From an archaeon (GTDB lineage Archaea; Iainarchaeota; Iainarchaeia; Iainarchaeales; CSSED10-239): DNA of 7,604 nucleotides. Position 1 is the first letter of the stretch. Every line of letters starts with the position of its first letter. Below, piece by piece: positions 958 to 7,225 of the stretch. The notes beneath the pieces were generated by a model. It made no database searches. It was not told where the DNA came from and worked only from the letters and a program-made list of their open reading frames with translations. The stretch lies in the NCBI GenBank assembly GCA_037147375.1, contig JBAWVI010000045.1, positions 1-7,604 on the forward strand. The letters are read 5' to 3'. Position numbers and translations under genes: made by a program.

Positions 958-2127
958 TCATTTGTATTTATTTAATATTATTTCTAAATATTTTATGAAT
1001 TCTTTTGTGTCTAAAAAATAATTAGGATATGCCTTTTTTAGGTCTTGTATATTGTCTGCACTAACCAAAACCACATCATATTCCTTTCGATTATAAATCT
1101 TTTTTTCTGCTTTAGAATATGCTATAAGTGCTTCTTTTTCTTGTTTTTTATTAAATGCAGTAATGTTTAATCTTTCCAGTATTGTGTCTAATTCTAAAAG
1201 ATAAAAGTACATATTTTTTTTATTTTTAAAATTATCAAAAGATTTTATTGATTCAGTCCAATGTTTCATTTTTTTAATAACTTGTAATTCTTGTTCTTTT
1301 TGTTTTATTTGTAAATAAAGTTCTTTTTCATTTTCCGGAGTCCCTGATATAATAGGTGTATTTTCTAATTTAGCAAATGCAGAACTTACTAATTTAAAGA
1401 AGATTTTCCAATTTTCTTCACCTTGATTAGATTTAATAGCCTGCCTTGTGAAAAAATCAACTGTTTCAACAGCAGTTGCCCAAAGATGTTGTAGTTTTGA
1501 TCTTATTTGAACCTCAACTAACAAGTCATTATATTTATCTTTACCTTTATCACTTTTATACTTATATATTATATGTATACTTCTATATCCGTCTTGCTTT
1601 GGGTATAAAATATAATTTTTTTCATTTACTTTTTTGTGTTTTAAATCCCCATTTAAATAATACTTTTTATATAGTTCTGTTGCTAATTTAATATTTGACA
1701 TTACTACCCTACATCCTGCGATATCTTGCATTTGGGTTAATTTCATTGTTGGTTTGTTATTATTATATCTTCTTTTTAGTTTTTTGAGTATTGATGAAAC
1801 TCTCTTTAATCTTTGAGCAGATAATGCGTTTTTATCTATTTTTTCTGAAACTCTTTTCAATCTTTTCTTAAATACATTTAATGGATAATTGTGTGCTCCT
1901 TTCCAGTTACTTACTTGTTCTAAAGCATTATTTATTTCTTCTTCTGAATGGTGTTTGTCATCACAAAGAATTATAGCTGAATTATTTATTTTTGATTTTG
2001 AAAGGTTTATAATATCTAATTGTTTCATAACCATATATTCTATCATAATTCTTTTAAATATATCTAATTGCGCAGTATTTATTAAAAACAAGTATCTAAT
2101 TGCGCGGAATGTAATTATGTGATCCAT
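958..2127 (-). CDS. RelA/SpoT-domain nucleotide pyrophosphokinase (small alarmone synthetase / toxSAS-like) with an uncharacterised ~150-aa C-terminal domain
   Basis: RSH synthetase motifs are intact in order: a basic ATP-binding patch (SAQRLKRVSSILKKLKR), DIAGCRVV, GYRSIHIIY and VEVQIRSKLQHLWATAVE. The N-terminal segment (LSKSKINN...NWKGAHNYPL) resembles stand-alone RelA/SpoT-domain proteins. The start is uncertain. Alternative ATGs lie at 2046, 2034 and 2028 (M28, M32, M34), and the first 27 codons overlap DNA repeats that sit in different reading frames. Confidence 0.85.
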   Translation of the reverse strand: MDHIITFRAIRYLFLINTAQLDIFKRIMIEYMVMKQLDIINLSKSKINNSAIILCDDKHHSEEEINNALEQVSNWKGAHNYPLNVFKKRLKRVSEKIDKNALSAQRLKRVSSILKKLKRRYNNNKPTMKLTQMQDIAGCRVVMSNIKLATELYKKYYLNGDLKHKKVNEKNYILYPKQDGYRSIHIIYKYKSDKGKDKYNDLLVEVQIRSKLQHLWATAVETVDFFTRQAIKSNQGEENWKIFFKLVSSAFAKLENTPIISGTPENEKELYLQIKQKEQELQVIKKMKHWTESIKSFDNFKNKKNMYFYLLELDTILERLNITAFNKKQEKEALIAYSKAEKKIYNRKEYDVVLVSADNIQDLKKAYPNYFLDTKEFIKYLEIILNKYK

Positions 2128-3111: not shown

Positions 3112-3225
3112 ATGCCACAAGAATTTAAAAAGAAACCAACTGATGATGACGTTTATGATGATGATGACGACACTTCTGACTTTGAGGATACTGAAGAAGA
3201 AGACTCTGACGAAGACGATATTTAA
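3112..3225 (+). CDS. candidate hyper-acidic micro-protein (37 aa, MPQEFKKKPTDDDVYDDDDDTSDFEDTEEEDSDEDDI)
   Basis: Hand-translated ORF with GGAGAG 6 nt upstream of the ATG and AAAATATA about 45 nt upstream as a possible TATA box. 20 of 37 residues are Asp or Glu. Local GC is raised and GAC codons are used. The short length keeps confidence moderate. Confidence 0.4.
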   Translation: MPQEFKKKPTDDDVYDDDDDTSDFEDTEEEDSDEDDI

Positions 3226-4074: not shown

Positions 4075-4263
4075 ATGGAATGTAAGAAAGAAGTTAATCT
4101 AAGATCTTGTCCTTGTACATATTCTTGTATAAGGAAAGGGATTTGTTGTGAATGTATTAAATACCACCGCAAGAACAAAGAGCTTCCAGCTTGTTACTTC
4201 TCAAAGGAACAAGAAAGAACTTATGATAGAAGCATAGAAAATTATCTTAAAACTAGAAAATAA
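4075..4263 (+). CDS. Cys-rich small protein (62 aa), DUF6485-like
   Basis: Eight Cys residues in the pattern C..(8)..CPCTYSCIRKGICCECIKYHR...LPACYF, which I recall from the small Cys-rich cytosolic-protein family of anaerobes. The family name is from memory and unverified. GTGAT lies 5 nt before the ATG, and the gene starts 15 nt after the cyclophilin stop. Confidence 0.65.
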   Translation: MECKKEVNLRSCPCTYSCIRKGICCECIKYHRKNKELPACYFSKEQERTYDRSIENYLKTRK

Positions 4264-4270
4264 AAAAAAT

Positions 4271-4894
4271 TTACTTCTTTTGCCCTAAAAGAAGCATGTG
4301 CTTTTTCTCAAATGGATCAAGCTTCTTTTGGTCTATTAGGTTGAAGTGTTTTCTGAAAAGTTCAAGTTGATCTTCTCTAAGATTTGAATCCTTCTTCTGA
4401 GTTAAAGCAGAGAGCTTTAAACTAAGCAGAACATACCCTTTTTCCTTTAAGAAAAGATCAGAGTTCTTAACTAATATTTCAACTTGATTTTTCTGAGCAA
4501 TATCTTGGATAATTAAATCAAACTTTTCTCCTGCAAGTGATTCAACATATGTTTCAGGCTTATTACAATCTCCAAGAAGAGGAATTAAGTTTGCTCTTTC
4601 AAGAGATAAAAGATAAAGCTTTTGCATTGAGTGTGCTGAGATATCTGCTCCAATAACAATTCCATTAGATGCAATATCAGATATAAAAGAAATTGTATAT
4701 CCTTCAGCAGCTCCAAGATAAAGAACCTTTGAGTTTTCATTTATTGGAAACTCTTTAATTCCTTTTTTAATTCCAGCAGCAACCTTTGAATGACTTGGAT
4801 CCCATATTCTTTTTTCACTTGAGTTAAGATCAATAGTTCCTATCATTCCATCTTTAATTATTAAATTTTTAATTTGGTTCATAATAGTTTTCAC
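4271..4894 (-). CDS. flpA: fibrillarin-like rRNA/tRNA 2'-O-methyltransferase (divergent)
   Basis: Alignable by eye along its length to archaeal fibrillarin: RIWDPSHSKVAAGIKKGI, KVLYLGAAEGYTISFISDI, NLIPLLGDCNKPETY, QDIAQKNQVEIL and LDPFEKKHM. The ORF-track start at 4894 is a GTG. ATG at 4882 (MNQIKN...) is more likely, because that GTGA would then be the SD-like motif 8 nt upstream. Confidence 0.85.
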   Translation of the reverse strand: MKTIMNQIKNLIIKDGMIGTIDLNSSEKRIWDPSHSKVAAGIKKGIKEFPINENSKVLYLGAAEGYTISFISDIASNGIVIGADISAHSMQKLYLLSLERANLIPLLGDCNKPETYVESLAGEKFDLIIQDIAQKNQVEILVKNSDLFLKEKGYVLLSLKLSALTQKKDSNLREDQLELFRKHFNLIDQKKLDPFEKKHMLLLGQKK

Positions 4895-4895
4895 A

Positions 4896-5690
4896 TTATT
4901 TTATTCTTTTAACTACAAGATATTCTCTTGGTAGGTTTTCTCCAATTAATATAACATTCATGCCTGGATTATTTTCTTTTTTAAAATTATGATACTTTGC
5001 TTCAAATCCCATTTTACTTAGTTTTTTTGTAAATGCATCTGCATATTCTTTTTTATGCTCAGAAAAAAATCCAAAGAAACCATAACCTCCTTTTTCAAGA
5101 GAATAAAGATGTTTTAATAGAATTTCTCTTTGCAAGTGTGGAGTTGAATGTGCAAAACCACCGAATACAGAAAATATAAAATCAAATTTTTCTTTAGGAA
5201 CGTATTTACTTACGTCTCCAACATAAACCTTGTCAATTTTTGCGCGTTTTAAATCCTTTTTATTTAATACAATTGCTGTAGTTTCAAGTTTAGGGTTTTT
5301 TGGATCCATTTTTCTAAATGTTTCCCACATTTCTTTTAAATCAGTTAAGAAAACCCCTCTTCCAGCACCATCATCTAGTACCTTCATAACTTTCTTTTTG
5401 TTTTTAATTGAATATTCTACCATTACTTGTAAAATTTCTTTATTTTCTAATCCATCTCCAAGCTTAAGATACTTAATCATATTATTATATTCTGGATATC
5501 CTCTATTCCTAGAATAAAGACGATTATCATTTTCCCCAATAAGCCATTCAGAGTAAACACAATTCTCAATTCTTGATTTTTTATGCATCTCAATAGTTGA
5601 GTCTTTAAGTTTTTTTTCAATTATTTTTTGTTGAACCTTTTCCATTCCAAACTTTTTTGGTTTTGGTCTTGGATTTAATATTCTTCCCAT
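4896..5690 (-). CDS. class I SAM-dependent methyltransferase of unknown specificity, with a basic ~95-aa N-terminal extension
   Basis: Motif I is VLDDGAGRGVF, with later Rossmann motifs FDFIFSVFGG and LEKGGYGFFGF. The N-terminus is basic (MGRILNPRPKPKKFG). GTGAT lies 8 nt before the ATG and overlaps the nop5 stop. The gene is wedged between nop5 (9-nt gap) and fibrillarin (1-13-nt gap). Confidence 0.75.
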   Translation of the reverse strand: MGRILNPRPKPKKFGMEKVQQKIIEKKLKDSTIEMHKKSRIENCVYSEWLIGENDNRLYSRNRGYPEYNNMIKYLKLGDGLENKEILQVMVEYSIKNKKKVMKVLDDGAGRGVFLTDLKEMWETFRKMDPKNPKLETTAIVLNKKDLKRAKIDKVYVGDVSKYVPKEKFDFIFSVFGGFAHSTPHLQREILLKHLYSLEKGGYGFFGFFSEHKKEYADAFTKKLSKMGFEAKYHNFKKENNPGMNVILIGENLPREYLVVKRIK

Positions 5691-5699
5691 AACTATTCA

Positions 5700-6470
5700 T
5701 CACTTCGTGTGCTTTATCTTATAATTTATTTTTTCAAGAAGTTCTTTTGATATATCTTTTCCACCAAGATCAGACTTAATCCCAATTGCAATCTTTGATG
5801 CAATTATTCTTGCAATCTTTCCTTTCTGTTTAGCTGGAAGGGAAATGATTAATGGATGATTAAAAAGAATTCCATACTTTGGAGTATTCTTGTTTTGTGC
5901 AAGTGCTTTAAAAAATGATTTTTCAGATCCAAGAAGTTGAATAGTTGATGCAGGAAATCTTGAAAGTCTTGCAATTCCACCAGAAATAATAAGCATCTTT
6001 GTTGCAATTGCGCTGCTTGCAACTTTTGTAAATGTAGGATAAGTTTCAATTAATAACTTTTCAATTTCTTTTGCAAGTACTTCTTTAATTTCAATTAAGT
6101 TAAGTATGTTGCTTGAAAGAGATTTAGTTAACTTCTTTTCCTTCTCAGAAAACTTAATTCCAACCTCTGAATCAATAATTGTAGTTATTTGTTTAATTCT
6201 TTTCTTATCAAGTCCAACCTTTTCAAGTGTTTTTTCATTTACTTCTTCAAGATTATAAACTAAACAATATTCTTTAATAGAAAGAATAGAATCAAGCATA
6301 GGATACTCTAAATCTGTAATAATTCTTAATGCTTCAAACAATTCATTTAAATTATTTGGAACCTTTTCAGAAAGTAAAGATAAAGCAATTATTCTTTGAT
6401 CAGGAGAAGTTAATTCCTTTCTAATTCCTTCTTTTGCGATCTTTAGCATCTCATTTTTATTAATTTTCAT
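5700..6470 (-). CDS. nop5: Nop5 (Nop56/58) C/D box sRNP core protein, short form (256 aa)
   Basis: The C-terminal Nop domain is clear: ATKMLIISGGIARLSRFPASTIQLLGSEKSFFKALAQNKNTPKYGILFNHPLI...KGKIARIIASKIAIGIKSD (compare the canonical AG.L..LA..PAST.Q.LGAEKALF...PKHG.I......RGK.AR.LA.K.A.A.R.D). The protein is about 140-150 aa shorter than typical ~400-aa archaeal Nop5. Confidence 0.85.
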   Translation of the reverse strand: MKINKNEMLKIAKEGIRKELTSPDQRIIALSLLSEKVPNNLNELFEALRIITDLEYPMLDSILSIKEYCLVYNLEEVNEKTLEKVGLDKKRIKQITTIIDSEVGIKFSEKEKKLTKSLSSNILNLIEIKEVLAKEIEKLLIETYPTFTKVASSAIATKMLIISGGIARLSRFPASTIQLLGSEKSFFKALAQNKNTPKYGILFNHPLIISLPAKQKGKIARIIASKIAIGIKSDLGGKDISKELLEKINYKIKHTK

Positions 6471-6592
6471 ATCTTATCAGCGTTAATCAAAATAATAAGT
6501 TTTTTTAATGTATTCAATATATATTTTATAGTATATTACCATTTATAAATAGTTTGAAGCTAAATAAATAAGTAAAAAAAATGTGATTTATA

Positions 6593-7225
6593 ATGAATAA
6601 AGATGATTTAATTTCAATAAGTATAGCCTTTGTATTAGGAATGATAGGAACTATTTTTGCATACTTTAATGCATCAAGTAATCCATTATTTGGGTTACCA
6701 ATAATTGCTTTATTAATAATAACTTTCCTTATATCTTTTACTCTTTTGTTTGTAATATTTAAGTATCTTGTATTTGGATTAATCTTAAAAAAGAAAGAAA
6801 TTATTCCATCAAGAGAAATTCCAAAAGCAACTTCAACTGTTAAGAATACTTTTGTTCCTGGAAGCAATGCTCCTCAAGCAAGAGAAGTACAAGCACCTAA
6901 AGTGCAATCTCCAACACCAGTAAAGGTACCTGAACCAGTTAAAGAAGAAGTTCACAAGGATGTATCTTTAATGGTTGAAAACATAACTGAACCACAAGTA
7001 GTTCCTGAAAAAAAGGATGTACTTGTTCTTGATAATACAATTGATCATGTTAAGAATGAAGAAAGAAATGTAAGAAGAGAAGAGATTGTTAAAGAATCAG
7101 TTGCAACAACTCTTGTTGATTTAAATCCAGAAGTATCTAAATCTAAAATTGAAGATAAGCCTAGTGATCCAGAAGCACCAAAATTTAGAAAACTAAGTAC
7201 TTTTGAAGATATAGATAAAAAATAA
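6593..7225 (+). CDS. membrane protein, two N-terminal TM helices and a Pro/Val/Lys/Glu-rich probably disordered tail (210 aa)
   Basis: Longest ORF at this locus. The hydrophobic segments are ISIAFVLGMIGTIFAYF and LPIIALLIITFLISFTLLFVIFKYLVFGLIL. The tail contains QAPKVQSPTPVKVPEPVKEEV. GTGAT lies 5 nt before the ATG. No family recognised. Confidence 0.65.
   Translation: MNKDDLISISIAFVLGMIGTIFAYFNASSNPLFGLPIIALLIITFLISFTLLFVIFKYLVFGLILKKKEIIPSREIPKATSTVKNTFVPGSNAPQAREVQAPKVQSPTPVKVPEPVKEEVHKDVSLMVENITEPQVVPEKKDVLVLDNTIDHVKNEERNVRREEIVKESVATTLVDLNPEVSKSKIEDKPSDPEAPKFRKLSTFEDIDKK

Follow-up and report, generated by a model that had tools for sequence, protein, structure and literature searches.

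A gene for an orphan, predicted class I S-adenosylmethionine (SAM)-dependent methyltransferase (MT) separates nop5 from the fibrillarin gene in a 7,604-nucleotide (nt) stretch of archaeal DNA (contig JBAWVI010000045.1; hereafter the window), and this lineage-specific insertion into the nop5-fibrillarin operon is real. In the canonical archaeal nop5-flpA (fibrillarin) operon, the genes for two core proteins of the C/D box small ribonucleoprotein (sRNP) are adjacent. In the window, three co-directional open reading frames (ORFs) lie on the minus strand, where a short nop5 (6470-5700) is followed by the 264-residue MT (5690-4896; NCBI MEI8364489.1) and then by fibrillarin (4882-4271). The gap between nop5 and the MT is 9 nt, and that between the MT and fibrillarin is 13 nt when the latter is read from an ATG or 1 nt from a GTG. 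The arrangement given in the preliminary description of this DNA, a 264-residue MT wedged on the same strand between the two core genes by gaps of 9 and 1-13 nt, agrees with the sequence, and the motifs quoted from it (VLDDGAGRGVF, FDFIFSVFGG, and LEKGGYGFF) are all present. No report of an MT insertion between nop5 and fibrillarin was found in literature searches.

The order nop5-MT-fibrillarin was found in at least eight distinct lineages, comprising the window with L021, L022, L023, L012/L024, L009-11/L027, L001/L003/L004/L026, L015/L025, and L008, with Nop5 identities to the window ranging from 92% down to 53%. Tight packing, as first described for the window, extends to every relative bearing the MT; the nop5-MT junctions are 4-9 nt or overlapping, and all junctions are 4-15 nt or overlapping. 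The recurrence of the arrangement in at least eight lineages argues that it is not due to chance. In a neighbor-joining tree of the MT family, the MTs linked to Nop5 and fibrillarin form one clade, making a single insertion the simplest history. Nop5 was already truncated when one branch of the family became inserted between its gene and fibrillarin, and the insertion has been kept in one sub-lineage of Iainarchaeota-like archaea. A sporadic occurrence of the gene in relatives would have counted against the first interpretation; the survey instead finds a conserved linkage of monophyletic MTs. At L002 (1-858), the match to this locus stops within nop5, 193 nt short of the MT, and the switch there to an unrelated GATase region is probably the result of chimeric assembly.

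The surrounding genes are also kept in syntenic relatives that have no MT. In L028, L030/31 (Candidatus Iainarchaeum sp.), and L032/33, the genes for RNase HII, L35Ae, short Nop5, fibrillarin, DUF6485, and cyclophilin are retained, with short nop5 abutting or overlapping fibrillarin, and no member of the MT family lies within 5 kb. As the short Nop5 is found directly beside fibrillarin in these three relatives, it does not depend on the MT or co-vary with it, and the MT itself looks like an accessory gene. In a neighbor-joining tree of Nop5 (calculated with no support values), the MT-bearing group of the window is monophyletic, and the MT-bearing L008 groups with the MT-less L028, a placement implying that the insertion is older and was later lost in places, or that the gene was transferred.

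A sister clade of the MT family adjoins the gene for leucyl-tRNA synthetase (LeuRS), in the order LeuRS-MT in L005-7 and as MT-LeuRS or MT-MT-LeuRS in L017 and L016, respectively. This adjacency independently ties the family to a translation gene for a second time. The LeuRS-adjoining MTs are located at 4419-5207 in L005, 1698-2507 in L017, and 1756-3349 in L016, where the gene is tandemly duplicated. Two distant members of the family (4992-5816 and 8623-9408) flank an Lhr-type helicase gene in L020, a single archaeal metagenome-assembled genome, so several copies per genome are possible.

Based on its predicted fold and motif I, the MT is a class I methyltransferase of no described family. 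An exhaustive profile search produced 233 family representatives (clusters at 50% identity) with E ≤ 1e-3, 140 of them with E ≤ 1e-10; nearly all are 240-300 residues long, and the family was found only on archaeal, DPANN-like contigs. Its members share a basic N terminus, the motif R-x-Y-x-x-Y-N, motif I (DDGAGxG), D-x-I-F-S-x-x-G, and a C-terminal LPxxxLIIxRxK, and the N-terminal peptide KPKKFGME-x-QQKIIEKKLK is strongly conserved. Motif I of the window MT, VLDDGAGRG, occupies residues 103-111. Across 70 diverse members, Gly108 is invariant and Gly110 and Gly112 are at least 90% conserved, as are motif I and some 20 other positions. Matches of the window MT to the generic Pfam methyltransferase models fall below threshold, the best being Methyltransf_25 (21.7 bits; cutoff, 27), and the TIGR02072 BioC model gives 17.8 bits where the cutoff is 185 (family-best BioC E value, 7e-6). 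When the 70 members were scanned, Methyltransf_23 and Methyltransf_25 of Pfam were matched by 23 and 20, respectively, BioC of NCBIfam by 21, mad2 of PADLOC by 20, and phrog_4752 of PHROGs, annotated as 'tRNA methyltransferase', by 18. A sequence search of the PDB with the MT gave nothing significant.

The AlphaFold model, built on the 70-sequence family alignment, is of high confidence (pLDDT 92.1, pTM 0.90) and predicts a flexible basic tail (residues 1-15), a four-helix cap (16-96), and a seven-stranded Rossmann core (101-262). The cap helices span residues 16-27, 31-51, 65-75, and 86-96, with pLDDT values of 85-98, and the core strands residues 101-107, 134-141, 154-157, 169-174, 198-208, 229-235, and 256-262, with helices between them. 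Foldseek searches with the AlphaFold models returned hundreds of class I MT matches at a probability of 1.00. The original assignment to class I is therefore upheld by motif I and the model, with the generic Pfam models contributing only sub-threshold matches. Membership of a well-characterized small-molecule family, which would likewise have counted against the first interpretation, does not apply, as the matches from Pfam, NCBIfam, PADLOC, PHROGs, and Foldseek are all generic or sub-threshold. The MT is basic overall (pI 9.7) and markedly so in residues 1-30 (pI 10.5), which include the lysine-rich tail. The basic N-terminal extension of about 95 residues in the preliminary description is thus correct in charge for residues 1-30 and is otherwise mostly a structured helical cap.

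Comparison of the MT with the C/D core proteins produced no Nop, Fibrillarin, or L7Ae match in Pfam, and fibrillarin appears among the Foldseek matches only as a distant and generic neighbor, at ranks 48-50 and, in a second search, at rank 41. The idea that the N-terminal 95 residues represent the displaced N-terminal domain of Nop5 was rejected (hhalign probability 0.3%, in a region that is all-helical). No relative of the MT was found in IMG/VR and only generic folds were matched in BFVD; with the PADLOC mad2 and PHROG matches being weak and generic, a defense or viral origin is without support.

The MT evolves under selection and at a very uneven pace. Between the window and L022, which form the closest pair, nonsynonymous (dN) and synonymous (dS) divergence are 0.039 and 0.435, respectively, a dN/dS of 0.09 that reveals clear purifying selection; with the invariant core motifs and the confident fold, it shows the MT to be a real and selected gene within the operon, as had been supposed. 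The ratio dN(MT)/dN(Nop5) varies between 0.95 and 7.9 across pairs, and the MT changes erratically and out of step with both Nop5 and fibrillarin. Between L001 and L015, Nop5 and fibrillarin are each 89% identical and the MT is 43% identical (dN ∼0.5). Along the same two loci (L001 6001-6771 and L015 1914-2663), nucleotide identity drops from 81-96% to 43-73% exactly at the borders of the MT, with 79-88% in fibrillarin. Either an episodic acceleration (hypervariability) or an exchange among divergent linked alleles may have affected this one gene; dS is saturated over longer distances in the AT-rich MT, nop5, and fibrillarin genes, so the two are inseparable. Replacement by a paralogue of the LeuRS type or by a more distant one was also considered and is not supported, the linked MTs being monophyletic in the neighbor-joining tree. 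Such uneven divergence is not usually seen in a stoichiometric core subunit that co-evolves with a conserved scaffold.

The reading we favor, at about an even chance of being right, is that the MT is a functional, stand-alone class I SAM-dependent accessory enzyme that is co-expressed with the C/D proteins and probably acts on RNA or the translation apparatus. The association of the family with two independent neighbors (nop5-fibrillarin and LeuRS), together with its basic character, makes such a target plausible. From the packing of the genes, the nop5 promoter would drive transcription of the MT together with nop5 and fibrillarin, and translation of the MT would start from a Shine-Dalgarno-like site of its own a few bases past the nop5 stop codon; MT expression would thereby track that of the C/D ribonucleoprotein (RNP) proteins. 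The genomic context suggests that the enzyme would act independently of guides on RNA or on a component of translation or ribosome biogenesis, and the N-terminal helical cap, with the conserved basic residues Arg63, Lys119, Lys193, Lys226, and Arg262, would form the substrate pocket. The MT would be dispensable at the level of the lineage and rapidly diverging, and would not belong to the C/D RNP as an integral subunit.

Several observations weigh against this proposal. The neighbors of distant family members (e.g. L013 and L019) are unrelated, such as PRPP synthetase, the Lhr helicase, and a pol X-like protein, and in compact genomes the order of genes need not carry any functional meaning. 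No specific MT family emerged from the scans of the 70 members against Pfam, NCBIfam, PADLOC, and PHROGs, only weak generic matches that give no clue to a substrate, and the structural neighbors in the PDB and a viral library are a broad mixture of small-molecule, protein, and RNA class I MTs with TM-scores of 0.35-0.45. SAM binding is itself assumed and hence putative; the SAM ribose is usually bound by an acidic residue that closes strand 2, and the family shows no conservation at this position, where Leu, Asn, Asp, or Thr is found. This acidic residue is not universal among class I MTs, and its absence does not exclude membership of the superfamily.

The MT could alternatively be a hitch-hiker that exploits a constitutively expressed operon of a compact genome and methylates a substrate unrelated to RNA or ribosomes, such as a small molecule, a lipid, or an unrelated protein, which we regard as possible although on the unlikely side. 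The weak best matches are indeed to small-molecule MTs (BioC, as above, trans-aconitate MT, CalS10, and DhpI), close relatives have lost the gene or never had it, its fast evolution is typical of peripheral functions, and an unrelated MT gene located after fibrillarin in L009-11 suggests that the site tolerates passengers. This has to be set against the two separate associations with translation genes, that with LeuRS occurring in two orders, the strongly basic protein with its lysine-rich tail, and the retention of the position while Nop5 diverged to 53% identity. The opposite view, that the MT is an integral partner docking on the truncated Nop5 or fibrillarin to provide a second C/D RNP activity or an adaptor for the missing domain, appears improbable. 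It would account for the tightly coupled position between two core genes in at least eight lineages and for the recruitment of fibrillarin, which needs explaining when Nop5 is without the domain that normally holds it, and the conserved KPKKFGME-x-QQKIIEKKLK peptide could be a docking helix. However, the same short Nop5 is paired with fibrillarin alone in L028, L030, and L032, the surface of the MT diverges 3-8 times faster than Nop5 and fibrillarin and out of step with them, its all-helical N terminus is unlike the Nop5 N-terminal domain, and paralogues are found in unrelated contexts. More improbable still is the specific form in which the basic N-terminal helix docks on a platform of short Nop5, L7Ae, and small RNA (sRNA), with the MT as second catalytic subunit or adaptor; if true, the C/D guide RNP would deliver a second methyl mark or tether fibrillarin in a new way, and the MT would diverge rapidly because of retargeting. 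The remodelled, Nop5-scaffolded methylation machine suggested in the preliminary description is accordingly not supported, and is somewhat disfavored by the MT-less relatives with short Nop5, the mismatch in rates, the MT paralogues in unrelated contexts, and the negligible hhalign probability.

Two further explanations concern the integrity of the gene. That the MT is a decaying or non-catalytic remnant, a pseudo-methyltransferase, is very doubtful. Divergence is very fast in some lineages, as for L001 and L015, and strand 2 is not followed by the canonical acidic residue, but the ORF is intact in every lineage, and the dN/dS of the closest pair, the conserved motif I and some 20 other positions in the family, and the high-confidence fold prediction all speak for a maintained enzyme. 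A bifunctional Nop5-MT fusion of 524 residues, arising by stop read-through or TGA recoding, is effectively refuted. The two genes share a frame in the window, with only TGA TGA ATA GTT between them, and 524-residue Nop5-WW-IV-MT entries exist in public protein sets (P0008, P0011, and P0162); the WW in these, however, comes from gene calls with genetic code 4, artefacts on low-GC contigs. Moreover, two stops in tandem are anything but a leaky context, the RelA/SpoT gene of the window likewise terminates in TGA, and the shared frame is not conserved, the MT lying in a different frame from nop5 in L012 and L009 and overlapping it in L008.

The short Nop5 (5700-6470, minus strand; 256 residues) consists of a coiled-coil and a Nop domain (Pfam Nop, 4.8e-36). 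It matches positions 123-376 of the 417-position NCBIfam aNOP56 model and aligns with residues 122-372 of the 388 residues of Sulfolobus solfataricus Nop5, the counterpart of residues ∼1-120 being missing. The N-terminal domain of Nop5 is the one that binds fibrillarin (PMC7962484, PMC11213020). From these alignments the Nop5 of the window is genuinely truncated, with its fibrillarin-binding domain gone, which confirms the truncation originally noted. Some 85 protein clusters (P0168-P0251) with at least 46% identity, one of them named Candidatus Iainarchaeum sp., are all 238-273 residues long and contain the Nop domain only, and full-length Nop5 was seen at no more than 37% identity, in Aenigmarchaeota. 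Judged by these proteins, short Nop5 is the norm across the whole clade, although nop5 and fibrillarin remain adjacent. A metagenome scan with the Nop5 alignment gave 9 loci, its search patterns being too clade-specific. No report of a natural Nop5 without the N-terminal domain was found in literature searches, and its clade-wide loss is more surprising biology than the insertion of the MT.

The fibrillarin of the window (4271-4882, minus strand) is orthodox and a clear orthologue, with matches to Pfam Fibrillarin (1.7e-49), to the NCBIfam model above its cutoff, and to Methanocaldococcus jannaschii fibrillarin (6.5e-43). The ORF finder placed its start at the GTG at 4894, which would give 207 residues. 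Because MN(Q/S/T)IKNLI is the N terminus of every orthologue, the likely start is the ATG at 4882, giving 203 residues, and probably not the GTG. In L009 (5383-6057; also in L010 and L011) an additional Methyltransf_25 gene encoding 224 residues follows fibrillarin on the same strand, and is unrelated to both the operon MT and the TehB-like MT of the window.

The junctions of the operon carry recognizable signals in a sequence of ∼28% GC. Within the nop5-MT junction (5691-5703, minus strand), a GTGAT at 5703-5699 overlaps the nop5 stop codon TGA (5702-5700), exactly as the preliminary description had it, and precedes the ATG of the MT by 8 nt; a second in-frame TGA follows at 5699-5697, so that nop5 ends in tandem stops. 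The MT ends in TAA, and the 13-nt junction with fibrillarin (4883-4895, minus strand) contains GTGAA at 4894-4890. GTGAT or GTGAA lies 8-9 nt upstream of six of the nine window genes (the MT, fibrillarin, and four more), a recurrence that makes a Shine-Dalgarno-like reading reasonable; the motif upstream of nop5 is a weaker GCTGAT. Directly after the fibrillarin stop codon, the sole long T-run (4257-4270, minus strand; T8 at 4269-4262, then T4) is a candidate archaeal terminator of a three-gene transcript. Comparable runs follow fibrillarin in L015 and L030, and neither internal junction has one. The AT-rich region upstream of nop5 (6471-6592, minus strand), with a TATA-like tataaaat at 6530-6523, is a candidate operon promoter, a sigma-70 scan being uninformative for archaea. 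All eight MT-bearing lineages are alike in their short junctions, their Shine-Dalgarno-like motifs, and having no T-run before the end of fibrillarin.

Other features of the window lie outside the operon. Upstream of the cyclophilin gene, a conserved micro-ORF (3112-3225, plus strand) encodes an extremely acidic peptide of 37 residues (MPQEFKKKPTDDDVYDDDDDTSDFEDTEEEDSDEDDI) that is also present in L001, L009, L012, L015, and L023. The sole candidate for a C/D sRNA near the operon, a match to Rfam sR2 (E 0.34, 3154-3211), falls inside this micro-ORF and was dismissed as spurious. A 389-residue protein (958-2127, minus strand) contains a RelA/SpoT nucleotidyltransferase domain (7.7e-18), here in a DPANN-like archaeon; its gene has homologues close to the operon in L009 and immediately behind the MT paralogue in L005. 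Divergently oriented upstream of nop5, a gene (6593-7225, plus strand) encodes a predicted membrane protein of 210 residues whose tail is rich in proline and glutamate and which matches no family; its position is kept in L001, L009, L012, L015, and L030, and it is absent in L032.

If the MT modifies rRNA, tRNA, or an RNP protein, a DPANN-restricted family of ∼230 clusters would join the archaeal repertoire of RNA modification. Genomes that are syntenic except for the presence or absence of the MT can be compared, which makes its position a handle on the substrate, and the short Nop5 beside fibrillarin makes the positioning of fibrillarin on guide RNAs in these archaea directly testable. Should the MT be only a passenger, it would caution against inferring function from operon membership in compact genomes.

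Compared with known systems, the locus retains the two core genes of the canonical nop5-flpA operon in their usual order, on one strand and closely coupled, with the Nop domain intact, and differs in the third gene between them and in a Nop5 without the fibrillarin-binding N-terminal domain. The short Nop5 resembles Prp31 of the eukaryotic U4 snRNP, likewise a coiled-coil and Nop domain protein without that N-terminal domain (PMC11213020). It is nonetheless much closer to archaeal Nop5 (1.3e-30) than to Prp31 (8.5e-13), and its gene still adjoins fibrillarin. With the UbiE/BioC-like enzymes (Methyltransf_11/23/25) the MT has in common the seven-stranded Rossmann core and a GxGxG motif I, and its N-terminal helical cap with Y-x-x-Y-N aligns with the equivalent region of the PH1305-like 1WZN and of cap-N7 MTs. 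It is set apart from them by scores below the Pfam gathering thresholds, by TM-scores of only 0.35-0.45 in spite of a model with a pLDDT of 92, and by the basic tail (KPKKFGME...KKLK) and C-terminal LPxxxLIIxRxK peculiar to its own family. Size, class I fold, basic charge, and association with translation genes are shared with stand-alone rRNA and tRNA MTs (FtsJ/RrmJ, Trm, and METTL-type), from which the MT differs in having no THUMP, PUA, or other RNA-binding module. The K-D-K-E tetrad of the FtsJ/RrmJ 2'-O-MTs is not recognizable in the MT, as judged by eye from the alignment, in which no lysine is conserved at the first and third positions and Asn69 seems to occupy the place of the first catalytic lysine of FtsJ; the FtsJ model is matched by one of the 70 family members.

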